This document shows positions 2,548 through 40,334 of a stretch of 53,709 bases of DNA, in pieces (the stretch's first letter is position 1; each line of letters begins with the position of its first letter). A model generated the notes under the pieces. It worked only from the letters and a program-made list of their open reading frames with translations, made no database searches and was not told the origin of the DNA. The stretch is from Minisyncoccota bacterium (GTDB lineage: Bacteria; Patescibacteriota; Minisyncoccia; UBA6257; JAGOQP01). A program made the position numbers and the translations under genes. The DNA lies in assembly GCA_041661795.1 (NCBI GenBank), contig JBAZTS010000002.1, forward strand, positions 102,263 to 155,971, in the 5' to 3' direction.

Positions 2548-2764
2548 ATTAATTATTTAATTATAATCCTACTCTTATTGTCCCATAAAAGATTTAATAA
2601 GGGAATACTTTGTGGAATTGCGGTGTTTGTTGGACAAAGTTCGAAACTATTTCGAGCAAAATCCAAATGATTAAAACTACTAAAAAGGACTCGGCAGGGC
2701 GAAACAATTTGTCTGGGGGAAAGGATTTAAAATCTCTTCATTTTCAAAATGCGTCGCCAAAAAA

Positions 2765-3106
2765 TTATCTAAAAATTAAAACTCCTATAATATATGAACA
2801 AAAATTCATTACCAAGGACAATGCTAATAATTTTCTGGATTTTTCCTGTAAGGCAAAAACCAACAATTTCCATTCAATTAAAACAACAACTATCTCCAAA
2901 AACAAAATTATTAGCAAACTTGATTTGAAGAAAAAAAAATGATCATTGACCAACAAAAAATAGTTTAATATTAGATTTGTAAAAAGATTGATAAAAACAA
3001 TTGCGATAATTTCTATCTTTTTTCTAAATCCAAAAAAGAAAGCGATTATTAGCTCAATTACTATCGTTAAAAGTAAAGCTAAAAGATAACTACTTATTAA
3101 TGACAT
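2765..3106 (-). CDS. Hypothetical multi-TM membrane protein
   Basis: 113 aa and strongly hydrophobic. Overlaps the upstream minus-strand ORF by 17 nt, which suggests an operon. Confidence 0.4.
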   Translation of the reverse strand: MSLISSYLLALLLTIVIELIIAFFFGFRKKIEIIAIVFINLFTNLILNYFLLVNDHFFFFKSSLLIILFLEIVVVLIEWKLLVFALQEKSRKLLALSLVMNFCSYIIGVLIFR

Positions 3107-3311
3107 TTTTCTTTCTTCTTATTGCACGAATGACCAACCAAGAAATCAAGACGATAACGCCAACAATAACGCCACCTATAATCAATAAATCAACGACTGC
3201 TGGAGTACCAGGCACAATCCTTGATGTAACAATTATATCAGCATGTGCACTCAAGGCAGAAAATAATAAACCTAACACCGCAAATATTGATAATAAACTA
3301 GCTTTTCTCAT
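3090..3311 (-). CDS. Small secreted, membrane-anchored protein
   Basis: Signal-peptide-like N-terminus (LLSIFAVLGLLFSALSAHA), C-terminal TM segment and RRKK stop-transfer. Confidence 0.4.
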   Translation of the reverse strand: MRKASLLSIFAVLGLLFSALSAHADIIVTSRIVPGTPAVVDLLIIGGVIVGVIVLISWLVIRAIRRKKNVINK

Positions 3312-3359
3312 ATTTTTATTTTGTTAATTGATTTTTTAATAAAAATGTAAAAACATTTA

Positions 3360-4439
3360 TTACTGCTCGACTCTTTGTAGTATAAATTTTTTGAAATACA
3401 AATACAATCCTGAAAAAAGAGCTACCGCCGATATAATTATTATGCTAAAAATAAACCAATTATTGGCAAGAGCTTGTTTTATTGAAAAGAAGGCGGGAAG
3501 CATTCCAAAAATTAAAGCCAAACAGGTCAAACCGAAAGCAAATCCAGGACGACCGGGCAAGATGTTTGAAATGGCGACCAATGTTATCGGCATAGTTATA
3601 TTAAATAGAAACATTCCAATAATTGCCAAGTAAGGAATATTTGCACCAAAAACAAGAAAAGGAATAGATAGAACTAACGCTCCAACAGCGACCCGAATCC
3701 AGCCAAATTTATCAGCTAAAATTCCACCAAGTCCTTTACCTAAAACAACTGCCGAGGTCAAAATTATCAGTAGATCAATATTTGTTTTCCATGGAAATAC
3801 AAGCACCGCTCCAACAAGTGAACGAATTGCAATTGAGAGAAAAACCAACAGTAGAATAAATTCGAAGTAGTTAAATTTATTTTCTCTAACTGCTTCTCGT
3901 TCATAATTCATTTCTGGTTTTCTAATAACAAACATTAAAAGACACAGAATGGCTAAAATTAAAATAAAAGGCCATGCAATGAATTGCCCACCCTTACCAA
4001 GTAAAGTGCCGACGAGAAGACCTATGGCACCAGGGGCAACATAAATTCCCGGGGCGGTCGCTTTTTTAGGAGTTAAATTCAAACTTATACTACCACCACC
4101 GATATGAAATAAAGCATTTCCTAGTCCTGCAAAAATTATGGCTACGATTGGAAAAGACAAAAATGTAATTGCGGAAAGTCCAGTTAAAATACAACCTAAA
4201 AAAGCGACTACTCGCGGAGATTTAAAATGATCTGTAACAAGGCCAAAAATTGCCTGAAGACCAAAAGCCAAAACATTATACAAAATTACTAAACTTATAA
4301 AATCTGTTGTGCTGACAATTTGATTTTTGAGAATACTAAAAATTACCGCGGCACAAATTCCGTCAACTATGGCGTGAGCAGTTCCATAAACAAAAAGATT
4401 TGCAGAAATATTTTTTAATGATATTTTTTTATTATCCAT
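3360..4439 (-). CDS. Polytopic membrane protein (transporter-like, family not recognised)
   Basis: 359 aa with roughly 10-12 hydrophobic segments. No diagnostic motif recognised. Confidence 0.55.
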   Translation of the reverse strand: MDNKKISLKNISANLFVYGTAHAIVDGICAAVIFSILKNQIVSTTDFISLVILYNVLAFGLQAIFGLVTDHFKSPRVVAFLGCILTGLSAITFLSFPIVAIIFAGLGNALFHIGGGSISLNLTPKKATAPGIYVAPGAIGLLVGTLLGKGGQFIAWPFILILAILCLLMFVIRKPEMNYEREAVRENKFNYFEFILLLVFLSIAIRSLVGAVLVFPWKTNIDLLIILTSAVVLGKGLGGILADKFGWIRVAVGALVLSIPFLVFGANIPYLAIIGMFLFNITMPITLVAISNILPGRPGFAFGLTCLALIFGMLPAFFSIKQALANNWFIFSIIIISAVALFSGLYLYFKKFILQRVEQ

Positions 4440-13545: not shown

Positions 13546-13562
13546 GATAAAAGTTTAGTTAC

Positions 13563-13591
13563 TTGACTTGGTTGGTGGAAATATATAAATT
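13563..13591 (+). promoter_or_regulatory. Putative promoter of the GC-rich RNA
   Basis: TTGACT (13563-13568), 17-nt spacer, TAAATT (13586-13591). The rplC promoter candidate at 30196 has the near-identical TTGACA-17-TAAATT architecture. Confidence 0.4.
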
Positions 13592-13597
13592 AAAAAC

Positions 13598-13967
13598 AGA
13601 ACCTGAAATGGGTTGCGTTGACCCCGTCTATGACAGTCGTTATTTTGCTCACTATTGCTCAATCTTCCTCCTTCCTCGCTCGCGTCTTGACTAGAAGTCG
13701 GAAGAAAGAGTGAGAGTTGAGTGACCTTTGTCAGGGAGTTCTTCACTCCTTTTGTCAACGCGACTCGTGTTAGTACCCCGCCAGCAGGGTTGTTGGCTTC
13801 TCATGGTGGTTCATTCTTCGATCGATGGCCTCCTCAAGAGCTCCATACTCGTTTCACTTTTGTCCATCAAATCGAAAAAATGCCCCACGGGAGGGTTCTC
13901 CTCTCAAGCCAACGCCCTGCGCTACACCGAGGCGGCCGTGTTTTTACCGGCCGCCTCACCTTTTTAT
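13598..13967 (+). ncRNA. Unclassified structured RNA candidate (about 370 nt, GC-rich)
   Basis: One line hand-counts at 33/60 G+C, in a genome of roughly 25-35% G+C. Long-range helices 13614-13622/13754-13762 (9 bp) and 13792-13799/13906-13913 (8 bp, plus GGG/CCC). Several hairpins have G-U pairs only on the plus strand. Ends in a 10-bp GC hairpin (13929-13957) followed by a T-run. All three plus frames are open here, as expected for non-coding GC-rich sequence. Confidence 0.55.
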
Positions 13968-14015
13968 GTGGGGTTTGAAACAACCGTGTAAAAGTTGTAT
14001 CCTTTTAATATTAAA

Positions 14016-23478: not shown

Positions 23479-23507
23479 TTGACTTTGGTTCAATTTTTTT
23501 TTATTAT
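23479..23507 (+). promoter_or_regulatory. Putative promoter of the infA / alpha operon
   Basis: TTGACT (23479-23484), 17-nt spacer, TATTAT (23502-23507). The -10 element ends 11 nt before the infA ATG, which implies a very short or absent leader. Confidence 0.45.
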
Positions 23508-23518
23508 CAACTTCACTA

Positions 23519-23731
23519 ATGCTCAACAGCAATAAAAACGAACAGGCAGAAGGAATCGTTGTAGAATCGCTTCCCTCGGCCATGTTTAGGGTGAAAGTCA
23601 ATGAAAAAATTGTATTAGGGCATCTTTCCGGAAAGATGAGAATTCACTATATCAAGGTTATGCCTGGAGACAGAGTTTTAATTAAATTGAGTCCCGACGG
23701 CAACAGAGGAATTATTTCAAGAAGATTATAA
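23519..23731 (+). CDS. infA: Translation initiation factor IF-1
   Basis: [17 protein letters not shown]...[29 protein letters not shown]1-like fold. Confidence 0.92.
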
Positions 23732-23734
23732 ATT

Positions 23735-23848
23735 ATGAAAGTAAGAGCTTCAGTAAAAAAGATGTGTAACAGTTGTAAAACCGTCAGAAGAAAAGGGAAT
23801 ATTTATGTTATTTGTAAAAATCCAAAACACAAACAAAGACAAGGTTAA
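23735..23848 (+). CDS. rpmJ: 50S ribosomal protein L36
   Basis: Not in the ORF track (37 aa). Hand translation gives [37 protein letters not shown], in the canonical position between infA and rpsM. Confidence 0.9.
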
Positions 23849-23851
23849 AAT

Positions 23852-24235
23852 ATGAGATTATTAGGAATTAATTTACCGGATCAGAAAAAAATAGTCATTG
23901 CATTAACTTACTTTTACGGAGTTGGTAGATCTTTGGCTGAAAAAATAATAAAGGAAACAAAAATAGATCCGGATAAAAGGACTAAAGATTTGACTCCTGA
24001 AGAATCAAATAAAATAAAAAATTTTATAGAAAAGACCGCAAAAGTTGAAGGAGAGTTAAGGCAATTAGTTAAGACAAATATTGGTCGACTTAAGGACATA
24101 GGTTCTTATCGAGGCTCCAGACACGCCAGAAAACTTCCCGTTCATGGCCAAAGAACTAAAACCAATTCAAGAACCGTAAGAGGCAATGCAAGAAAAACAG
24201 CCGGAAGCGGTAAGAGAAAAGTTGATCTCAAGTAG
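23852..24235 (+). CDS. rpsM: 30S ribosomal protein S13
   Basis: LTYFYGVGRSLAEKI...GSYRGSRHARKLPVHGQRTKTNSRT. Confidence 0.95.
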   Translation: MRLLGINLPDQKKIVIALTYFYGVGRSLAEKIIKETKIDPDKRTKDLTPEESNKIKNFIEKTAKVEGELRQLVKTNIGRLKDIGSYRGSRHARKLPVHGQRTKTNSRTVRGNARKTAGSGKRKVDLK

Positions 24236-24249
24236 TATCAGCCAATATT

Positions 24250-24693
24250 ATGGGAAAGAAAAAAGTAATACAAAAAGTAGGAGGCGAACCGGTAGCAGAA
24301 GGCGCTAAACCAAAAAGCGCTGATTCCCAAAAACTGTCTTCAAAGAAGATAGAAATAGGCGTTGTTTATATAAATGCCACCTACAATAATATTCTTATAA
24401 CTGTAACCGACCAATCGGGAAATGTTTTGGCTTGGTCATCTTCTGGAACTTTAGGATTCTCCGGACCAAAAAAAGCCACACCTTTCGCCGCTTCTAAGGT
24501 AATGGAAACGGTTTTAGAAAAAACGAGAAAATCAGGACCTTTTAATGTTAATGTCATAGTCAAAGGAGTTGGAAGTGGAAGGGACTCGGCCATAAGAACC
24601 ATTGCCGCTCAAGGAATAAATATTCTATCAATCAAAGACGCTACGCCAATTCCACATAACGGTCCAAAACCAAAAAAAGTGAGAAGAGTTTAA
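24250..24693 (+). CDS. rpsK: 30S ribosomal protein S11
   Basis: VYINATYNNILITVTDQSGNVLAWSSSGTLGFSGPKKATPFAA. Confidence 0.95.
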   Translation: MGKKKVIQKVGGEPVAEGAKPKSADSQKLSSKKIEIGVVYINATYNNILITVTDQSGNVLAWSSSGTLGFSGPKKATPFAASKVMETVLEKTRKSGPFNVNVIVKGVGSGRDSAIRTIAAQGINILSIKDATPIPHNGPKPKKVRRV

Positions 24694-24694
24694 T

Positions 24695-25312
24695 ATGCGA
24701 CTTTTAAAATCAAAAGAAAAAAAGGAGAGAGCTCTACAAACCAGATTGGGATTAAAAGCCCATCGTTCTTTTTCTCCAAAAAGCGCCATGGTCAGAAGAC
24801 CTAATAAACCTGGAGAACACGGAGCTAAATTTTCAAGGTCCGGTTCTGAATTCAAAATTCAGTTGATGGAGAAGCAGAAAATGAAAATATCTTACGGGCT
24901 TACCGAAAGACAGATGAAAAATATGTTCAAAGTTGTTTCCAAGAGTAAGAAATCGGCTATGGATGTAATTACCAGAGAACTTGAGATGCGACTTGATAAC
25001 GTTGTTTACAGAATGGGTTTAATTCCTTCCAGAATAATGGGCAGGCAATTTGTCGGACATGGACATTTTTTGGTTAACGGAAGAAAAGTTACTATTCCTT
25101 CGTATAAAGTACGAGTGGGAGATGTAATATCTCCAAAGGAAAATATAAAGAATCATGATTTGTTTAAGGATTTAAAAAATACTTTAAAATCACAAAGAGA
25201 AGATTGGTTCATAGTTGATTTAGATAAACTTGAAGGCAAGGTTAAATCACTTCCGGAAAAAATTGATTTTCCATTTAATATAAACTTAATAGTCGATTAT
25301 TATTCAAGATAA
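24695..25312 (+). CDS. rpsD: 30S ribosomal protein S4
   Basis: S4 domain RQFVGHGHFLVNGRKVTIPSYKVRVGDVI. Canonical operon position. Confidence 0.95.
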   Translation: MRLLKSKEKKERALQTRLGLKAHRSFSPKSAMVRRPNKPGEHGAKFSRSGSEFKIQLMEKQKMKISYGLTERQMKNMFKVVSKSKKSAMDVITRELEMRLDNVVYRMGLIPSRIMGRQFVGHGHFLVNGRKVTIPSYKVRVGDVISPKENIKNHDLFKDLKNTLKSQREDWFIVDLDKLEGKVKSLPEKIDFPFNINLIVDYYSR

Positions 25313-25317
25313 TAAAT

Positions 25318-26094
25318 ATGGAGTATACATTTTTAAGCAAAAACGTTTCTATTAAGAAAGTATCAGAAGAACAAGCATCGGGAGTTTTTGAAATTTCCGG
25401 ACTGTACACCGGATACGGAGTTACTTTAGGGAACGCTCTTAGAAGAGTGCTTCTCTCATCTTTGCCGGGAGCAGCTATAACTCAGATAAAAATAAAAGGA
25501 GTCAAACACGAATTCTCAACCATGCCTGATGTTATGGAAGATATTATAGATATAACTCTTAATATGAAAAAGGTTAGGTTTAAGTTTTTTACAGATGAAC
25601 CTCAAATTCTTTCATTAAGAAAAAAAGGTTTAGGCCCGATAACCGCAGGTGATATAAAAGTCAATTCTGAAGTTGAAGTTGTTGACCCTGATGTTCATAT
25701 CGCTACTCTTACTTCAAAAAATGCCGAGATGGATATGGAAATAGTTGTGGAAAAAGGGTTGGGATATTCTCCGGTGGAAACAAGAAAAATGGAAAAATTA
25801 TCCATAGGGTCTATTGCCATAGACGCTATTTTTACTCCTGTAGTTAATGTAAATTTTGATGTGGAAAATATGCGTGTTGGCGATAAGACCGATTTTAATA
25901 AACTTATTCTTACTATAAAAACAGATGGAACTATTAGTCCGTCAAGGGCTCTTCACAAAGCCGCTAATATTTTGAAAGATCACATTGATATAGTTTCTGG
26001 AATAGAAACGAGCGACGAATTTGAAGGAAAAGTAAAAAAAGAGTCAGCTAAAGAAACTAAAACCGAAAAGAAGACCAAGAAAACAAAAAAGTAA
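25318..26094 (+). CDS. rpoA: DNA-directed RNA polymerase alpha subunit; N-terminal domain only, plus a lysine-rich tail
   Basis: LGNALRRVLLSSLPGAAITQIKI and the rest of the alpha-NTD are present. The protein ends at 258 aa with KVKKESAKETKTEKKTKKTKK. No alpha-CTD-like segment. Confidence 0.9.
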   Translation: MEYTFLSKNVSIKKVSEEQASGVFEISGLYTGYGVTLGNALRRVLLSSLPGAAITQIKIKGVKHEFSTMPDVMEDIIDITLNMKKVRFKFFTDEPQILSLRKKGLGPITAGDIKVNSEVEVVDPDVHIATLTSKNAEMDMEIVVEKGLGYSPVETRKMEKLSIGSIAIDAIFTPVVNVNFDVENMRVGDKTDFNKLILTIKTDGTISPSRALHKAANILKDHIDIVSGIETSDEFEGKVKKESAKETKTEKKTKKTKK

Positions 26095-26097
26095 TTC

Positions 26098-26448
26098 ATG
26101 ATACATCAAAAGAAAGGAAAAAAATTTGGTAGAAAAAGAGGTCAAAGAAGAGCTTTCTTAAAAGGCCTGATTGGTAATCTTATAAAGATAGGAAAGATAA
26201 CTACTACTGAAATTAGAGCCAAAGAAACCAGGTCACAAACTGAAAAATTATTGTCTCTCGCTAAAAAACAAAATGTCGCATCTTTAAGAATCTTAATTTC
26301 AAGAATCGGTAAAACTCCGGCTCAAAAATTATTTTACGAAATAGCTCCAAAATATTTGGATAGAAAAGGTGGATATATAAGAATTATTAAGCTTTCAAAA
26401 AAGAGAAAGGGCGACGCCTCGCAAATGGCGGTAGCAGAATTCGTTTAA
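26098..26448 (+). CDS. rplQ: 50S ribosomal protein L17
   Basis: GRKRGQRRAFLKGLIGNLIKIGKITTTEIRAKE. Canonical position after rpoA. Confidence 0.93.
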   Translation: MIHQKKGKKFGRKRGQRRAFLKGLIGNLIKIGKITTTEIRAKETRSQTEKLLSLAKKQNVASLRILISRIGKTPAQKLFYEIAPKYLDRKGGYIRIIKLSKKRKGDASQMAVAEFV

Positions 26449-26449
26449 T

Positions 26450-26659
26450 ATGAGTTTATTATCTAAAATAAAACAGGTTTTGGAAGAGGAGGAGGCCTGC
26501 TCTATATCTCAAAACGGGACGCCTATTTACGCCGTTATAAAATGGGAGAAATATCAGAAGATAATTAAAGAATCCAAAGATCTGAAAATAATAAAAGAAG
26601 AGGTTGATAAAGAAAGAGCTGAAGAGGAAAATATTGACATAAATAAGATTCCTGTGTAA
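26450..26659 (+). CDS. Small acidic hypothetical protein
   Basis: 69 aa, starting 2 nt after rplQ. A weak Phd/YefM-like N-terminal pattern (TPIYAVIKWEKYQKI). Function not supported. Confidence 0.35.
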   Translation: MSLLSKIKQVLEEEEACSISQNGTPIYAVIKWEKYQKIIKESKDLKIIKEEVDKERAEEENIDINKIPV

Positions 26660-26716
26660 TATAAGTGTCGGCATTAATAAATTTTATAATTAAAATTAAA
26701 TAAAAAACAAAAAAAT

Positions 26717-27916
26717 ATGGCAGAGAAAGCAAAATTTGACAGAAGTAAGCCGCACGTTAATGTTGGAACTATTGGTCACGTTGACCACGGAAAGACCACG
26801 TTAACCGCAGCTATTACTCATATCTTAAAATTAAAAGGTTTTATTGATAAAGAAGAAGGAGTTGACCAGATTGACAACGCTCCTGAAGAAAAGGCCCGTG
26901 GTATTACCATTGCTCTTCACCACTCTGAATATCAGACCGAGAAGAGACATTATGCTCATATTGATGCTCCTGGACACGCTGACTACATCAAGAACATGAT
27001 TACTGGAGCCGCTCAGATGGATGGAGCCATCTTGGTTGTGGCTGCAACTGATGGTCCTATGCCTCAAACCAGAGAGCACATTCTTTTGGCAAGACAGGTA
27101 GGAGTTCCAAAAATTATTGTTTTTCTTAACAAAGTTGATATGGTCTCTGACCCAGAACTTATTGATTTGGTTGAATCAGAAATCAGAGAGCTTCTTAAAA
27201 AGTATGAATTTCCTGGAGATGAAACTCCAATAATTAGAGGTTCAGCTCTAAAGGCATTGGAAACAACTTCAGGCGACAGCGAAGAAGCCAAACCTATTTT
27301 AGAATTAGTTAAGGCCTTGGATGAATACATCCCAGAACCAGTTAGGGAAACGGACAAACCATTCCTTATGCCTATTGAAGATATTTTCTCAATTGAAGGA
27401 AGAGGAACTGTGGTTACTGGAAAAATTGACAGAGGAATTGTTAAAGTTAACGAAGAAATTGAAATTGTCGGACTTAGACCAACCCAAAAAACGGTTGTTA
27501 CCGGAATTGAAATGTTCAATAAATTATTGGACGAAGGTCAAGCTGGAGACAATGTCGGAATTCTTTTGAGAGGTCTTAAAAAGGAAGATGTTGAAAGGGG
27601 ACAGGTTATCGCTAAACCCGGAAGCATTACTCCTCATACCGATTTTGAAGCCGAAGTGCTTATTTTGACCAAAGAAGAAGGTGGAAGACACACTCCATTC
27701 TTTAAAGGATATAAACCGCAGTTCTATATTAGAACCACGGATGTTACCGGAGAGGTGATTTTGCCCGAAGGAACCGAAATGGTTATGCCTGGAGACACAA
27801 TTACATTAAAAGCCCAACTTATCGCTCCTGTAGCTTTGGAAGAAAAAATGAAATTTGCTATTAGAGAGGGAGGAAAAACGGTTGGAGCCGGAGTTGTCAC
27901 TAAGATAATAAAATAA
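26717..27916 (+). CDS. tuf: Elongation factor Tu
   Basis: [18 protein letters not shown] and the full EF-Tu body. Confidence 0.97.
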
Positions 27917-27934
27917 AGTTTTTATCGCACTCTT

Positions 27935-28264
27935 ATGCCTAAAAAGGACGTTGAAAACAAAAGTAGAATACGACTAAAAATAAAATCATACGACCATCGT
28001 TTGATTGATACTTCAACCAAACAGATAATTGATACCGCTCAAAGAAACGGAGCCCAAGTAATTGGTCCGATTCCTTTACCGACGGAAATCAGGAAGTATA
28101 CCGTCAATCGTTCAACTTTTGTTCATAAAAATTCCAGAGAACAGTTTGAAATGAGAGTCCATAAACGTCTGATAGAAATATTAGACCCCGGGCAAAAGAT
28201 TGTAGAATCACTTTCCAGTTTGTCATTACCTTCGGGAGTGGAAGTGGAAATAAAAATGATTTAA
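27935..28264 (+). CDS. rpsJ: 30S ribosomal protein S10
   Basis: RIRLKIKSYDHRLIDTSTKQIIDTAQRNGAQVIGPIPLPT. Confidence 0.95.
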   Translation: MPKKDVENKSRIRLKIKSYDHRLIDTSTKQIIDTAQRNGAQVIGPIPLPTEIRKYTVNRSTFVHKNSREQFEMRVHKRLIEILDPGQKIVESLSSLSLPSGVEVEIKMI

Positions 28265-28266
28265 AT

Positions 28267-28298
28267 AAAACCCCTCCGGCTCAAATCGGAGGGGTTTT
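28267..28298 (+). terminator. Intrinsic terminator directly after rpsJ
   Basis: AAAA CCCCTCCG GCTCAAAT CGGAGGGG TTTT. Confidence 0.65.
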
Positions 28299-28301
28299 AA
28301 C

Positions 28302-29282
28302 TTGATGAATATAATAACCCAAGATCCTCTTAATGTATTAAAATCTACAAAAGCTGTGCTTGAAAAAGCTCAGTTTGTTTCGATTAACCAGGATAATATA
28401 CAAACGATAGCTAATCAGCTTTTGGAAGATTGTGAAGAAAAATTAAATAGCATGAAGAAGGATTTTCATTTAGCGGGAAATCTTGAGGATAATTTACAAT
28501 TAGTTTTTATTGAAGACGTGGTAAATTTCTGTTTTTGGGCAGACAAAGATAAATTTAAATGGCAAACGGAATGGCCTAGTGGGAATATTATATTCGGAGG
28601 ATGGTACTCTCTAAAAAGTTGTTTTGAGCGGGCATTACATAATAAAGTTCCTATTTTGGATGCCAATTATTTGTCGTCCATATCATCAGAAGATGCCAAG
28701 AACTTTTTTAAGGGCGTAGACGATACCCAGATTCCTCTTCTTGAAAATAGAACAGATAATTTAAGAGAAGCTGGGAAAATATTACTTAGTGAATTTAACG
28801 GAAAATTCGTTAATGTTTTAGAAGCTTCCGAATTTGACGCCATTAAGCTTGTTCAACTAATAATCAAATACTTCCCATCATTTAGAGACATCTCGGTTAT
28901 TGAAGGGAATGAAGTTTTTTTCTTAAAAAGGGCTCAGATATGTGCTTGTGATGTTTCTTATTTGTTGAAAAAAGATAAGTTATCCAATTTTCCTCTGTTA
29001 ACGGCATTTGCCGATTATAAATTGCCTCAGATTTTGAGAATGTTTGATATTATAGAATATAGTGATGATTTGGCTAAAAAGATAGATAACATGGAAGAAA
29101 TACCTCATGACAGTCGTGAAGAAATAGAAATAAGATCTGCTACTATTTGGGCGGTTGAATTAATACGTCAAAAAATTGGCAAAATGCCAACGAGTAATAT
29201 TGACAACCTCCTATGGTTAATGAGTCAAAAGATTCAAGATAAAGCAAAACCGTATCATAGGACAAGAACTATATATTATTAA
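28302..29282 (+). CDS. Queuosine salvage protein (DUF2419 / QNG1-like queuosine 5'-phosphate N-glycosylase family)
   Basis: FCFW, FFLKRAQICACDV, LTAFADYKLPQILRMFDIIEYS and SREEIEIRSATIWAVE match recalled DUF2419 conservation. An alternative ATG start lies at 28305. Confidence 0.7.
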   Translation: MMNIITQDPLNVLKSTKAVLEKAQFVSINQDNIQTIANQLLEDCEEKLNSMKKDFHLAGNLEDNLQLVFIEDVVNFCFWADKDKFKWQTEWPSGNIIFGGWYSLKSCFERALHNKVPILDANYLSSISSEDAKNFFKGVDDTQIPLLENRTDNLREAGKILLSEFNGKFVNVLEASEFDAIKLVQLIIKYFPSFRDISVIEGNEVFFLKRAQICACDVSYLLKKDKLSNFPLLTAFADYKLPQILRMFDIIEYSDDLAKKIDNMEEIPHDSREEIEIRSATIWAVELIRQKIGKMPTSNIDNLLWLMSQKIQDKAKPYHRTRTIYY

Positions 29283-29292
29283 TAAAATTTCA

Positions 29293-29320
29293 AAGGGCTC
29301 CTTGCGGGAGCCCTTGTTTG
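29293..29320. terminator. Bidirectional terminator between the queuosine-salvage gene and the GC-rich operon
   Basis: AAGGGCTCC (29293-29301) pairs with GGAGCCCTT (29307-29315). T-rich sequence follows on both strands. Confidence 0.6.
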
Positions 29321-29348
29321 TGGGGTGCGGAATGGTGTGTTCAATTAC

Positions 29349-29612
29349 TTACTTCTCGTGGAGGCGGCCATGAAACCACCAACGCAGAGAAAAATATGTT
29401 CTCACAAACTCCGGAATGACAAACCGAAGTCCGCAGATTGCGCAGTGGATGGCATTGTGGGCTTTAGAGATCCGGTGGATCTCTATCTGTCCACCGCAGA
29501 TGCCGTGTTTGCCGATCGCTCCTGAAGGCGGAAGAAGGTTCTCGTCCTTCACCTTACTTCCGGATAACTCATCAAGCGTTCCTTCCTCTGGACTGAAAAC
29601 TATAGGTCTCAC
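29349..29612 (-). CDS. Hypothetical zinc-ribbon-like protein (third gene of the GC-rich operon)
   Basis: GTG start preceded by AAGGAGAA. KHGICGG-x16-HCAICG resembles a YgiT/MqsA-type zinc ribbon. GC-rich codon usage. Confidence 0.5.
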   Translation of the reverse strand: MRPIVFSPEEGTLDELSGSKVKDENLLPPSGAIGKHGICGGQIEIHRISKAHNAIHCAICGLRFVIPEFVRTYFSLRWWFHGRLHEK

Positions 29613-29626
29613 GGTTTCTCCTTTTT

Positions 29627-29857
29627 TTAGTTGTCACCGAGGTAGACATTGCGTACGGCGAACAGGGACGGGTCGCAGATGAGCCCCAATCTTTTTCTCA
29701 AAAAGAGGATAAAGTTGATAGCTTGTTCCTTTCTGCAACCAACGGCTTGAAGATGTCTGTGATACTTGTCTCTGGCCCAGAACATCGGGGGATCATCTGG
29801 ACTTCCCCCGAGAAGGCCGACGTCGATGGTCATCGGGTCTTCGCTGGTCAAAATCAT
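29627..29857 (-). CDS. Hypothetical protein (second gene of the GC-rich operon)
   Basis: ATG preceded by AAGGAGGGAG. 76 aa. No family recognised. Confidence 0.5.
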   Translation of the reverse strand: MILTSEDPMTIDVGLLGGSPDDPPMFWARDKYHRHLQAVGCRKEQAINFILFLRKRLGLICDPSLFAVRNVYLGDN

Positions 29858-29874
29858 AGCTCCCTCCTTTGAAG

Positions 29875-30102
29875 TTAAGCGTTGTTGGCCTTACTGTAAG
29901 ATAGCGCCTTCTTACTGAAGGTTACCTTACAGTATCTCGAGTTTATGTTGTACTTCTTAAGAAGAAGAACAAGGGCCTCTTCTCCAGTTGAGCCGAATTC
30001 CACTGTTTCGGGAGATGATTGGAGACGGGCGAAAAATGACCCATTTCCTCCAATCTCCTCTGGTGAAAAATACCCGACTTGGATTGTTATTATTTCCGGC
30101 AT
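29875..30102 (-). CDS. HicB/DUF1902-like small protein (first gene of the GC-rich operon)
   Basis: ATG preceded by AAAGGAGAGG. IITIQVGYFSPEEIGGNGSFFARLQSSPETVEFGSTGEEALVLL resembles the HicB-N / UPF0150 antitoxin-like fold pattern. Confidence 0.5.
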   Translation of the reverse strand: MPEIITIQVGYFSPEEIGGNGSFFARLQSSPETVEFGSTGEEALVLLLKKYNINSRYCKVTFSKKALSYSKANNA

Positions 30103-30122
30103 GTCCTCTCCTTTCTTTTTTT

Positions 30123-30151
30123 AAACTACAATATAATGGTATATTTGTCAA
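30123..30151 (-). promoter_or_regulatory. Putative promoter of the GC-rich minus-strand operon
   Basis: On the minus strand: TTGACA (30151-30146), 17-nt spacer, TAGTTT (30128-30123). About 20 nt upstream of the SD/ATG at 30102. Confidence 0.5.
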
Positions 30152-30195
30152 AGGGTTATACTAATCGGAAAGAAGAAGAGAGTAGGCCAATTCTA

Positions 30196-30224
30196 TTGAC
30201 AGTAAGCCGTCTTTTTGCTAAATT
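30196..30224 (+). promoter_or_regulatory. Putative promoter of the rplC-led ribosomal operon
   Basis: TTGACA (30196-30201), 17-nt spacer, TAAATT (30219-30224). Confidence 0.5.
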
Positions 30225-30260: not shown

Positions 30261-30292
30261 GGCCAAGGACATTGTCTTTGGGCCGATTTTTA
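30261..30292 (+). promoter_or_regulatory. Terminator-like hairpin in the rplC leader (possible attenuator)
   Basis: GGCCAAGGAC ATT GTCTTTGGGCC (one bulged G), followed by GATTTTTATT. Lies 16 nt upstream of the rplC ATG. Confidence 0.4.
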
Positions 30293-30307: not shown

Positions 30308-30913
30308 ATGTTTCTAATAGGAAAAAAAGTTAATATGGACCAAGTTTGGGAAGGAAGCAAAGTTATACCGGTTACCGTAATTGAAGCCGGTCCTGTTGTT
30401 ATTACCCAAGTCAAAGGAAAAGAAAAAGATGGTTACGATGCATTTCAATTGGGTTATGACACTTCCATTAAAAAAATAACCAAACCAATGGCCGGACATT
30501 TAAAGGAATTGGGAAAATTCAGGCACATAAAAGAATTTAAAAAGAAATCAAAGGAACAGAATTACAACGTCGGTGACACCATTGACGTTTCTGTTTTTTC
30601 TAAAGGAGATAAATTAACAATTGTCGGATATGAAAAAGGAAGAGGATTCCAAGGTGTTGTTAAAAGGCACGGATTTCACGGAGGACCAAAAACTCATGGA
30701 CAAAAAAATCGTCTAAGAGCCGGAGGATCATTGGGAGCTACCGCTCCACAAAGAGTTATCAAGGGAAGAAAGATGGCCGGAAGAATGGGAGTGGAAAGAG
30801 TTACTTTAAAAAATGTTTTGGTTGTAGGTGTTGATAAAGAAAAAAACCAATTAATCATAAAGGGTCCGGTTCCCGGAAATAAAAAATCAATTATTTTAAT
30901 AGAAAAGCAATAA
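30308..30913 (+). CDS. rplC: 50S ribosomal protein L3
   Basis: MFLIGKKVNMDQVWEGSKVIPVTVIEAGP matches the canonical L3 N-terminus. I chose the ATG at 30308 rather than the ORF-track start at 30272. Confidence 0.93.
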   Translation: MFLIGKKVNMDQVWEGSKVIPVTVIEAGPVVITQVKGKEKDGYDAFQLGYDTSIKKITKPMAGHLKELGKFRHIKEFKKKSKEQNYNVGDTIDVSVFSKGDKLTIVGYEKGRGFQGVVKRHGFHGGPKTHGQKNRLRAGGSLGATAPQRVIKGRKMAGRMGVERVTLKNVLVVGVDKEKNQLIIKGPVPGNKKSIILIEKQ

Positions 30914-38683: not shown

Positions 38684-39088
38684 ATGCAATTACACGAAAT
38701 AAAATCAAAAACAAGGAATAAATCCAAAAGAAGAGTTGGACGAGGAGGAAAAAGAGGGACTTATTCTGGAAGAGGTCAAAAGGGTCAGAAAGCCAGAGCT
38801 GGGAGAAGAATAAAACCTGCTCAGAGGGAAATTTTGTTAAGATTTCCAAAAAAGAGAGGATATAAAAACAAACCCAAAGGCAAAAGGACAACAGCCATAA
38901 ATATTAAAAGAATAATTAAGCTTAAAGAAAAAATCATAAACAAAGAGATCCTTTTAAAGTATGGTTTTATAGCAAAAAAGAATGATTTTGTTAAAATAAT
39001 AGGGGATACAAAACCAGATTTCAAAATTGAATTTGCTCCGGATATAAAATTCTCCAAAAAATATGTCAAAAATAATACAGCTGTTTAA
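38684..39088 (+). CDS. rplO: 50S ribosomal protein L15
   Basis: RRVGRGGKRGTYSGRGQKGQKARAG. Starts 2 nt after the rpsE stop, so no rpmD (L30) gene lies between them. Confidence 0.93.
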   Translation: MQLHEIKSKTRNKSKRRVGRGGKRGTYSGRGQKGQKARAGRRIKPAQREILLRFPKKRGYKNKPKGKRTTAINIKRIIKLKEKIINKEILLKYGFIAKKNDFVKIIGDTKPDFKIEFAPDIKFSKKYVKNNTAV

Positions 39089-40334
39089 AATCAAAGATCT
39101 TAGAAAAAAGATTTTTATAGTTCTTATATGGCTTATTATTTTTAGAATTTTAGCCGCTATTCCGATTCCGGATGTTGATTTGTCGCGTTTAGAAAACTTT
39201 TTTTCAAACAATCAATTACTCGGTTTTCTTAATATATTTTCAGGAGGAGGACTGTCCAATCTATCTATAGCCATGCTTGGAGTGGCGCCTTATATTACCG
39301 CTACCATCATCATGCAACTTCTAACGATGATATTTCCAAAACTTAAGGAAATGTATTACGAGGAAGGTGCTATGGGTAGAGCTAAATTTAACAGAATTTC
39401 AAAGTACATAACTGTTCCTCTTGGCTTTCTTCAGGCCTACGGATTTTTAAATATTCTTATATCTCAGCAAGTTTTGCCCGGATTGGGGACTTTAGCACTT
39501 CTGAAAAACGCTTTAATTATAACCGGAGGTTCAATGATATTAGTTTGGATTGGAGATTTAATCAGCGAGCAGAAGATAGGCAATGGAATTTCCTTAATCA
39601 TATTTGCCGGTATAGTCAGTAGTATTCCCACTGCTGTTCAAAAACTTATAACTTCATTTAACACAGCTGATTTAATCAGCTACATAACTTTTGCTATTCT
39701 AGCCGTTGTAGTTACCGCGGGAGTCGTTTTTATAAACGAAGGTGAAAGGAAGGTTCCCATTACTTATGCCAAGAGAGTCAGGGGGGTAAAAATGTTTGGG
39801 GGGGTTTCAAGTTACCTGCCTCTAAAAGTTAATCAAGCAGGAGTTATCCCGATTATATTTGCTATCTCGGTTTTACTTTTTCCTCAATTCATATCTCAAG
39901 CGTCGGCCATTTTTTCTAAAGATTTATCGGTTAAACTCTCTGAAACCATAAATAGATTGTTTGCCAACGATTATATTTATGCCCTTATTTACTTTGTTTT
40001 GGTTGTCGTATTTACCTATTTCTACACCTCAATAACTTTTGATCCTAAGGAAATATCCAAAAACATGCAAAGGGCAGGAGGATTTATTTTGGGAATAAGG
40101 CCGGGAGAATCAACTTCCATGTATCTTGCAAGAATCATATCCAGAATTACTCTTTGGGGAGCTATTTTCCTAGGGTTTATAGCCATACTTCCTAATATCA
40201 CCAGAATTGCCACCGGGGTAAGCATTGTTACTATTGGAGGAACCAGTTTACTTATCGTTGTCTCTGTCGCTTTGGAAGTTCTAAGACAGGTTAACTCGCA
40301 ATTAATAATGAGAGAATATGAGGGATTTGAGTAA
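39063..40334 (+). CDS. secY: Preprotein translocase subunit SecY
   Basis: Ten-TM layout, LGVAPYITATIIMQLL, GISLIIFAGIV. Canonical position. Confidence 0.96.
   Translation: MSKIIQLFKIKDLRKKIFIVLIWLIIFRILAAIPIPDVDLSRLENFFSNNQLLGFLNIFSGGGLSNLSIAMLGVAPYITATIIMQLLTMIFPKLKEMYYEEGAMGRAKFNRISKYITVPLGFLQAYGFLNILISQQVLPGLGTLALLKNALIITGGSMILVWIGDLISEQKIGNGISLIIFAGIVSSIPTAVQKLITSFNTADLISYITFAILAVVVTAGVVFINEGERKVPITYAKRVRGVKMFGGVSSYLPLKVNQAGVIPIIFAISVLLFPQFISQASAIFSKDLSVKLSETINRLFANDYIYALIYFVLVVVFTYFYTSITFDPKEISKNMQRAGGFILGIRPGESTSMYLARIISRITLWGAIFLGFIAILPNITRIATGVSIVTIGGTSLLIVVSVALEVLRQVNSQLIMREYEGFE

Follow-up and report, generated by a model that had tools for sequence, protein, structure and literature searches.

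A compositionally foreign, Shine-Dalgarno-bearing three-gene cassette in the variable rpsJ-rplC gap of a Minisyncoccota genome

Patescibacteria possess tiny genomes, regarded as tightly streamlined. The accessory element described here has its closest known counterpart in the phage moron, which PMC3594210 defines as a self-contained accessory transcription unit in a prophage. At the level of single proteins, the nearest described systems are the zinc ribbons, two-knuckle zinc-binding beta-hairpins such as LysW and the RpoP/Rpb12-type proteins, and small components of toxin-antitoxin (TA) systems such as HicB/UPF0150/DUF1902 and MqsA/YgiT. We analyzed a stretch of 53,709 nucleotides (nt), hereafter the window, from the Minisyncoccota bacterium assembly GCA_041661795.1 (contig JBAZTS010000002.1, positions 102,263 to 155,971 of the forward strand). 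In this window, a GC-rich block at 29319-30151 lies on the minus strand between a queuosine-salvage (Q_salvage) gene and rplC. The block is very probably of foreign origin, and we lean towards reading it as a recently acquired, self-contained accessory operon, plausibly derived from a phage or another mobile element, that came to rest in a tolerant inter-operon gap.

The cassette comprises three non-overlapping open reading frames (ORFs), each in its own frame, separated by 17 nt (ORF1-ORF2) and 14 nt (ORF2-ORF3). This arrangement matches the description given in a first-pass annotation, which had been made from the sequence alone. Its features, in the direction of reading and with lengths in amino acids (aa), are as follows.

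30123..30151, minus strand: candidate cassette promoter, TTGACA (30151-30146), 17-nt spacer, TAGTTT (30128-30123), read from sequence
30108..30113, minus strand: Shine-Dalgarno sequence AAGGAG of ORF1, read from sequence
30102..29875, minus strand: ORF1, 75 aa, ATG start, an ORFan predicted to fold as a small alpha/beta domain
29863..29869, minus strand: Shine-Dalgarno sequence AAGGAGG of ORF2, read from sequence
29857..29627, minus strand: ORF2, 76 aa, ATG start, an ORFan
29618..29623, minus strand: Shine-Dalgarno sequence AAGGAG of ORF3, read from sequence
29612..29349, minus strand: ORF3, 87 aa, GTG start, belonging to an unnamed zinc-ribbon family with H-C-C-C ligands
29293..29318, no strand assigned: GC-rich hairpin GGGCTCC-TTGC-GGGAGCCC, common to the convergent Q_salvage gene and ORF3

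Base composition sets the block clearly apart from its surroundings. Its GC content is 0.471, against a mean of 0.345 ± 0.028 and a maximum of 0.430 for other 833-nt windows (z = 4.5). GC content at third codon positions (GC3) amounts to 0.46 in ORF1, 0.62 in ORF2, and 0.55 in ORF3, whereas 56 host genes average 0.29 ± 0.046. The values of ORF2 at the three codon positions (0.52/0.38/0.62) follow the pattern of coding sequence. Translation signals diverge equally. Every cassette ORF carries a Shine-Dalgarno (SD) sequence of 6-7 nt, located 5-8 nt before the start codon. An SD core of at least 5 nt occurs in 1 of the 56 host genes and one of at least 4 nt in 7 of them (hypergeometric p ~1e-4 for 3/3 against 1/56); the sole host core of at least 5 nt belongs to the rpsJ terminator, as its 3' arm. 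Both the distinct composition and the near-confinement of strong AGGAG-type sites to the block, as initially proposed, are therefore confirmed. The anti-SD motif is missing from a subgroup (about half) of Parcubacteria (PMC9297842). Given this loss and the scarcity of SD sites in the host genes, the SD sites of the cassette are read as a donor signature.

The expression signals proposed for the block hold in part. The candidate promoter is present in the sequence with a perfect -35 hexamer, but its -10 hexamer agrees with the consensus at three of six positions only (T1, A2, T6), and for this reason a consensus promoter scan did not call it. The hairpin at 29293-29318 is likewise real and is probably a bidirectional terminator, usable from both strands; its T-runs are short, which explains why the terminator scan did not list it. 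In the ENA and Logan records, automatic gene callers overlooked both ORF2 and ORF3; in the NCBI record, they overlooked ORF2. Hence, small foreign genes are under-annotated in such genomes.

The locus is authentic. It is 100% identical across the junctions in five datasets, and the worry that the block might be an assembly chimera is thereby largely removed. Cassette DNA was found in the NCBI metagenome-assembled genome (MAG) GCA_041664185.1 (JBAYLG010000001.1), in the ENA MEGAHIT assembly ERZ27249449 (a 156-kb contig), and in the Logan assemblies of two SRA runs, SRR18595301 and SRR6484324; the cassette protein sequences are also recorded from a JGI/IMG contig of 155,971 bp. Contigs spanning the junctions are identical between the two SRA runs and across at least three assemblers, which makes a chimera very unlikely. 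The sole protein variant, a '99%' cluster mate, is a V/M difference at the GTG start of ORF3.

ORF3 is the member of the cassette with recognizable relatives. With the three cassette proteins concatenated as the query, a full HMMER search against 1.84 billion cluster representatives returned 124 homologues of ORF3 at E <= 1e-3 (E from 3e-10, 30-50% identity) and only self matches for ORF1 and ORF2. The best homologue is MBI2013620.1 (P0004), encoded on a 645-kb contig of Candidatus Colwellbacteria. In an alignment of 68 sequences (ORF3 and 67 homologues), H36, C39, C57, and C60 are invariant in 68/68 and form the H-x2-C...C-x2-C pattern, so the zinc motif spotted in the initial reading stands, and it is the defining feature of the family. 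The family consensus runs PIVLT..GE.L, a variable stretch, and IG.H..C.G.......S.TH.AL.C..CGLR..IP.....TYG.LR, and ORF3 retains all of its invariant and nearly invariant residues.

The AlphaFold2 (AF2) model of ORF3, built from the family alignment, is of high confidence, with a predicted local distance difference test (pLDDT) value of 95.4 and a predicted template modeling (pTM) score of 0.84. It comprises six strands, of which the N-terminal two span residues 4-7 and 11-14, and a helix at the C-terminus. The two knuckles are 17 residues apart (C39 to C57), each at a beta-hairpin turn. Four ligands on two knuckles, flanked by strands in the model, characterize a zinc ribbon, and the zinc site would use His36, Cys39, Cys57, and Cys60. 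No solved structure resembles the predicted domain: Foldseek against the PDB gave a best E of 0.5 with a template modeling (TM) score of at most 0.37, and against BFVD a best E of 0.37 with the whole domain unmatched. ORF3 has no significant Pfam, NCBIfam, PADLOC, or PHROG model, and searches with the family profile returned generic zinc-ribbon noise only. This unnamed family, with its confident model unlike any solved structure, and the two ORFans make up the new content of the locus.

The family extends beyond short proteins and beyond cellular genomes. In about 20 relatives, the ORF3 domain is C-terminal in proteins of 180-260 aa, behind an unannotated N-domain of ~130 aa; hhalign aligns ORF3 with these long forms at a probability of 99.2% (E = 1.5e-19), and PADLOC assigned none of its families to 20 of them. 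Further members were sought with degenerate DNA patterns in metagenome and viral contigs, where a looser pattern produced matches attributable to chance in 13 of 20 metagenome and 4 of 7 viral cases. Three IMG/VR viral contigs (41.6, 62, and 75.9 kb) carry the family, next to genes matching PHROG exonuclease, nucleotidyltransferase, and phrog_1362.

In cellular genomes, the family gene stands alone, with both flanking genes on the other strand, in 7 of 9 contexts, the window counted. Examples of its sites are the intervals between ybeY and hisS and between miaB and thrS, a place beside mfd and pth, and one near obg (context loci include L084, L086, L087, L089/L106, L116/L117, and L118). A conserved neighbor is absent among the contexts examined. 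The idea of ORF3 as an obligate TA partner is not supported, as its homologues usually stand alone. Foreign traits recur as well. The Colwellbacteria family gene has a GC3 of 0.56 against 0.38 ± 0.05 for its neighbors, GC3 is raised in other loci too, and a clear AGGAG-type SD sequence lies upstream of 5 of 9 family genes examined (L085, L086, L087, L093, and L099). The 7 of 9 contexts are only suggestive of a small mobile gene that was inserted repeatedly and independently.

ORF1 and ORF2 have no detectable relatives. Neither has a Pfam family at E <= 1 or E <= 10, nor a model in NCBIfam, PADLOC, or PHROGs, the sole NCBIfam match of ORF1 (E = 0.09) being irrelevant. The PDB sequence search was empty for both (for ORF1 at E <= 10), and a word-indexed search of 5.8 billion proteins matched ORF1, ORF2, and ORF3 only to themselves. 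A single-sequence AF2 model of ORF1 places strands at residues 5-12, 22-27, and 30-37, a helix at 40-50, and a strand at 58-62 (beta-beta-beta-alpha-beta), with a last short helix ending at residue 69 of 75; its pLDDT of 68-86 over residues 1-50 denotes medium confidence. The predicted topology is compatible with, and far from specific to, a HicB-like fold, so the HicB assignment made at first comes down to the topology of this one model. A Foldseek search with the concatenated, low-confidence model of all three proteins yielded only meaningless matches to HIV reverse transcriptase.

One candidate explanation for the two ORFans was rejected. By-eye echoes (FW/TxWL, KEQAINFIL/RDQAIQILF) and the summed lengths had raised the idea that ORF1 and ORF2 together correspond to the ~130-aa N-domain found in long-form ORF3 relatives, split in two. 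Hidden Markov model scores fell below those of shuffles, the hhalign probability was 0.9%, and shuffle tests gave a global z of -0.66 and a local z of 1.3 (7 of 80 shuffles as good).

In the first-pass annotation, rpsJ was said normally to precede rplC directly in bacteria, and the cassette to sit in one of the most conserved loci of the genome. The host features on either side are listed below, all on the plus strand.

28266..28299, plus strand: hairpin terminator of rpsJ that closes the tuf-rpsJ transcription unit, with 100% complementarity between its 13-nt arms, loop of 8, then TTTT
28305..29282, plus strand: queuosine-salvage gene, PF10343, E = 2.4e-76
30196..30224, plus strand: rplC operon promoter TTGACA, 17 nt, TAAATT with upstream TG, from the promoter scan, divergent from the cassette promoter
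30263..30290, plus strand: leader hairpin and T-run before rplC, attenuator-like, a terminator-like site that aligns with GC-rich hairpin/T-run segments in relatives
30308..30913, plus strand: rplC (uL3), first gene of the downstream ribosomal operon, PF00297

The direct succession of the two genes was recovered in 59 loci of other phyla (mostly Actinomycetota), where 38-115 nt (median 44) separate the end of rpsJ from rplC, but it does not hold generally within Patescibacteria. The survey covered loci returned by a uL3 search, including 16 Patescibacteria-like ones with enough upstream sequence. Seven of these have gaps of 13-472 nt, four have gaps of 1.2-3.3 kb, and five lack rpsJ within 5 kb, so that the junction is expanded or broken in 9/16 sampled loci. 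The interval looks like a lineage-wide insertion hot spot in Patescibacteria.

The window itself conforms to this picture. The rpsJ terminator and the Q_salvage gene behind it, both noted in the initial reading, are confirmed. TTGACA and TTTTTGCTA of the rplC promoter are invariant in five Paceibacteria genomes, namely the window and its closest relatives L004, L005, L006, and L008. Because rpsJ has its own terminator and rplC a conserved promoter and leader, the rpsJ-rplC junction is here the boundary of two transcription units. In the Paceibacteria lineage, it is thus an inter-operon gap, one in which insertions are tolerated. The claim of a most conserved locus is weakened accordingly, since the gap varies across Patescibacteria. 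The uL3 of the window is 71-74% identical to that of Candidatus Paceibacterota, Wolfebacteria, and Parcubacteria MAGs, which places the host, with its low GC content of 0.348, in the Parcubacteria/Paceibacteria branch of Patescibacteria. The rplC leader may be an attenuator, by analogy with L4-type autoregulation; it matched no Rfam family at the gathering threshold.

Comparison of the same interval in relatives, as had been recommended, showed that the block is missing in all four. A tblastn search found no match to Q_salvage or to the three ORFs in the rpsJ-rplC interval of L004, L005, L006, and L008. The gap of L006 and L008 measures 312-472 nt and is empty of cargo. That of L004 holds ~2 kb of small, unannotated genes other than those of the cassette. 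L005, which has no rpsJ within 5 kb, combines L004-type small genes with a 60%-GC island (2550-3700, GC 53-63% inside a locus of ~38-45% GC upstream of rplC). In this island, a 178-aa lipoprotein-like protein matches phrog_24725 (E = 1e-32), and a neighboring 216-aa protein matches phrog_2831 (E = 6e-9). The cassette is one case of recurrent, partly phage-derived cargo in the rpsJ-rplC gap.

Several observations concern these neighbors. A 212-aa protein from the L004 gap resembles the 216-aa protein of L005 by eye. The L004 gap also contains a 70-aa ORF (3643-3855) with a Cys/Gly-rich C-terminal tail, GGCGGCRGCHGCG; it has no Pfam match, and it was rejected as a relative of ORF1 (similarity at E = 2.4). 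The Q_salvage gene has a host-like GC3 of 0.27 and lies outside the GC-rich block. Its start (TTG 28302 or ATG 28305) falls 3-6 nt past the 3' arm of the rpsJ terminator, and its expression would require terminator read-through or an unrecognized promoter. GGAGG within the stem of this terminator is the only SD-like sequence near any host gene.

Farther from the cassette, gene order is unusual in that tuf-rpsJ is immediately preceded by the infA-rpmJ-rpsM-rpsK-rpsD-rpoA-rplQ cluster, which does not follow secY (window 23500-28264 and 39063-40334). The gene calls show nothing between uS5 and a 134-aa gene located just before secY, and this 134-aa gene has no Pfam match. If it is assumed to be uL15, uL30 is missing from the window; absence of uL30 has been reported for bacteria of the Candidate Phyla Radiation. 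A second GC-rich island at 13560-13990, probably on the minus strand, shows a GC content of ~0.43-0.50 against 0.35 and is flanked by genes for a MacB/FtsX-type permease and a Germane-domain protein. It contains no ORF longer than ~90 aa, no tRNA, no tmRNA, and no Rfam match even at E <= 1. For its minus strand, the folding energy is -146 kcal/mol (z = -4.5 relative to shuffled sequences), and the island is a candidate unannotated structured RNA of ~400 nt.

Taken as a recent acquisition, the locus can be described by a simple scenario. An accessory operon of about 29283 to 30190 would have entered the spacer between the tuf-rpsJ(-Q_salvage) and rplC-onward units of a low-GC, essentially SD-less Parcubacteria/Paceibacteria genome. 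Transcription would run leftward from its own sigma-70-like TTGACA-17-TAGTTT promoter, back to back with the rplC promoter, and the transcript would end at the hairpin common to the convergent Q_salvage gene. Translation would proceed from the three strong SD sites. The predicted products are two lineage-unique small soluble proteins, ORF1 with its alpha/beta domain and ORF2, together with the zinc-ribbon protein ORF3. The likely source would be a phage or another mobile element of Patescibacteria, or else a GC-richer, SD-using donor; a phage or mobile source is favored because the ORF3 family consists of scattered single genes in Parcubacteria-like genomes and also appears in viral contigs. 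Taken separately, the phage link has moderate support. The cassette would act like a moron, as a self-contained transcription unit added at a tolerant site. By its architecture, ORF3 probably serves in binding or regulation through the zinc ribbon and is less likely to be an enzyme or a classical toxin; it would most probably bind a nucleic acid or protein partner through its zinc ribbon during phage-host interplay, in regulation or exclusion.

A number of results weigh against this scenario. The claim of recent acquisition is backed by the foreign GC3 and SD sites and by the absence of the block from the four relatives, but the donor search found no source. Neither the block DNA nor the ORF3 protein had a significant match in 50,697 phage and 72,556 plasmid records, the only hit being a weak tblastn alignment of ORF3 to an Amphritea plasmid (E = 0.7). 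Neither an integrase or transposase gene nor att-like direct repeats or terminal inverted repeats occur in the flanks, and a search for direct and inverted repeats around the block found chance-level ones only. The closest ORF3 homologue is only 41% identical, ORF1 and ORF2 have none at all, and the viral contigs with family members were predicted from metagenomes. As a rule, mobile elements exceed their host in AT content, and the block is GC-richer. The -10 hexamer is weak, expression is a prediction from sequence signals, and the SD sites may be useless in the host if the anti-SD motif is missing there. ORF1 and ORF2 would count as genuine genes by their SD sites, spacing, and codon-position GC, plus one medium-confidence fold. 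Finally, all known copies are identical and amount to one clonal sequence; as a consequence, no dN/dS test of selection is possible.

Several other explanations deserve consideration alongside the accessory operon. The first-pass annotation proposed a toxin-antitoxin or addiction module, with ORF1 as a HicB-like antitoxin against a toxin encoded by ORF2 or ORF3, and with ORF3 as an MqsA/YgiT-like zinc-ribbon regulator. A compact operon of small proteins on a foreign islet and the zinc ribbon of ORF3 would suit such a module. The N-domain of HicB follows the order beta-beta-beta-alpha-beta, which the ORF1 model reproduces. Nevertheless, searches of Pfam, NCBIfam, and PADLOC with the three proteins matched no profile of HicA, HicB, UPF0150, DUF1902, MqsA, MqsR, or any other toxin or antitoxin, PHROGs adds none, and the empty PDB sequence searches with ORF1 and ORF2 point the same way. 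The three proteins lack helix-turn-helix (HTH) and ribbon-helix-helix DNA-binding domains. ORF3 homologues are mostly solitary or fused to an unrelated N-domain, without conserved pairing, and three genes with an SD site each differ from an overlapping pair. As neither a known toxin superfamily nor a conserved cognate pair is found in the cassette, we regard this reading as very unlikely. An anti-phage defense, superinfection-exclusion, or anti-defense cassette on a phage-derived islet has the viral ORF3 homologues amid early and DNA-metabolism genes on its side, as well as the patchy, independent insertion of the family in cellular genomes and an anatomy that fits the moron definition in PMC3594210. 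Conversely, PADLOC-DB 2.0 contains no defense-system family matching the three cassette proteins, the long forms are equally without a match, no enzymatic or effector domain is present, and the neighborhoods of family members contain no known defense genes; this option appears unlikely. Similarly doubtful is a broader proposal in which ORF3 and its ~124 relatives would form an undescribed zinc-ribbon fold on a small mobile gene that shuttles between Patescibacteria and phages and inserts, lone and anti-oriented, between housekeeping genes. The cassette would then be a new phage-host conflict module (exclusion, addiction, or anti-defense) whose SD signals are maintained in an SD-independent host.

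The block could also be neutral passenger DNA, a recent fragment that is barely or not expressed in an SD-independent host and is decaying. The weak -10 hexamer, the ORFan status of ORF1 and ORF2, the failure of host-trained callers to find ORF2 and ORF3, and the single clonal sequence fit this view, as does a host that rarely uses SD sites in a group where many members lack the anti-SD motif (PMC9297842). Yet none of the three ORFs is disrupted, their start codons, SD sites, and close spacing are all kept, and ORF3 preserves the conserved residues of its family and models at a pLDDT of 95. Streamlined small genomes usually shed useless DNA fast, so quick loss would be expected on general grounds, and we assign the passenger explanation a low probability. 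In AT-rich genomes, a GC-rich island is often an RNA gene, and a structured RNA misread as ORFs might be considered, given the folding of the second island at 13560-13990 without ORFs and a slightly better folding of the ORF1-ORF2 region than of shuffles (z = -2.4). The 124 protein homologues of ORF3, three SD-start pairs at correct spacing, and an Rfam search of the block that returned no RNA family even at E <= 1 argue otherwise. Together with the identical junction-spanning contigs described above, they have already largely refuted both the RNA and the chimera explanations, which we consider extremely unlikely.

The accessory-operon reading tempers some expectations and raises others. The rpsJ-rplC junction, nearly invariant elsewhere in bacteria, is an ordinary inter-operon gap in Paceibacteria that repeatedly gathers foreign, partly phage-derived cargo, and the location is thus less remarkable than first thought. 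The TA or defense reading, which was the source of the initial excitement, is unsupported. Small acquired moron-like islets are of a well-known kind, and this one reveals no new mechanism. On the other hand, an intact SD-bearing, GC-rich cassette in a nearly SD-less host serves as a natural marker of recent transfer and offers a handle on translation initiation in SD-poor hosts. The unnamed zinc-ribbon family could reasonably be given a domain entry of its own and be taken up in structural or functional work.

Like HicB/UPF0150/DUF1902 proteins, ORF1 is small, and the beta-beta-beta-alpha-beta order of its medium-confidence model is compatible with their fold; unlike them, it has no profile match (E <= 10) and no DNA-binding C-terminal domain, and no HicA/YcfA-type model is matched by ORF2 or ORF3. 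ORF3 resembles MqsA/YgiT in being a small bacterial protein with a four-ligand zinc ribbon. It differs in having H-C-C-C ligands, no YgiT/MqsA profile match, no HTH, and no MqsR-like partner, and MqsA is missing among the 50 Foldseek PDB matches listed for its model, none of which is better than E = 0.5; the MqsA likeness seen in the initial reading is accordingly not supported. Relative to zinc ribbons of the LysW and RpoP/Rpb12 type, the first ligand of ORF3 is an invariant His and not Cys, and the PIVLT..GE.L segment at the N-terminus and the TYG.LR helix at the C-terminus are specific to the family. The H-x2-C and C-x2-C knuckles are shared, and faint sequence echoes accompany them: LysW at E = 0.13 in the PDB sequence search, and Zn_ribbon_RPAB4 as a weak match in 10 of 68 family members (best E = 0.019).

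The phage moron remains the nearest parallel for the unit as a whole. The cassette departs from it in lying outside any recognizable prophage, flanked by Q_salvage and rplC and without phage genes around it in the window. It is also GC-richer, not AT-richer, than its host, and no phage copy of the full three-gene unit is known. In common with morons, it appears to carry its own promoter-like and terminator-like signals, its composition is unlike that of the surrounding DNA (GC z = 4.5), it sits between two otherwise adjacent genes, and it consists of small genes of accessory type, one of which, ORF3, has homologues in viral contigs.

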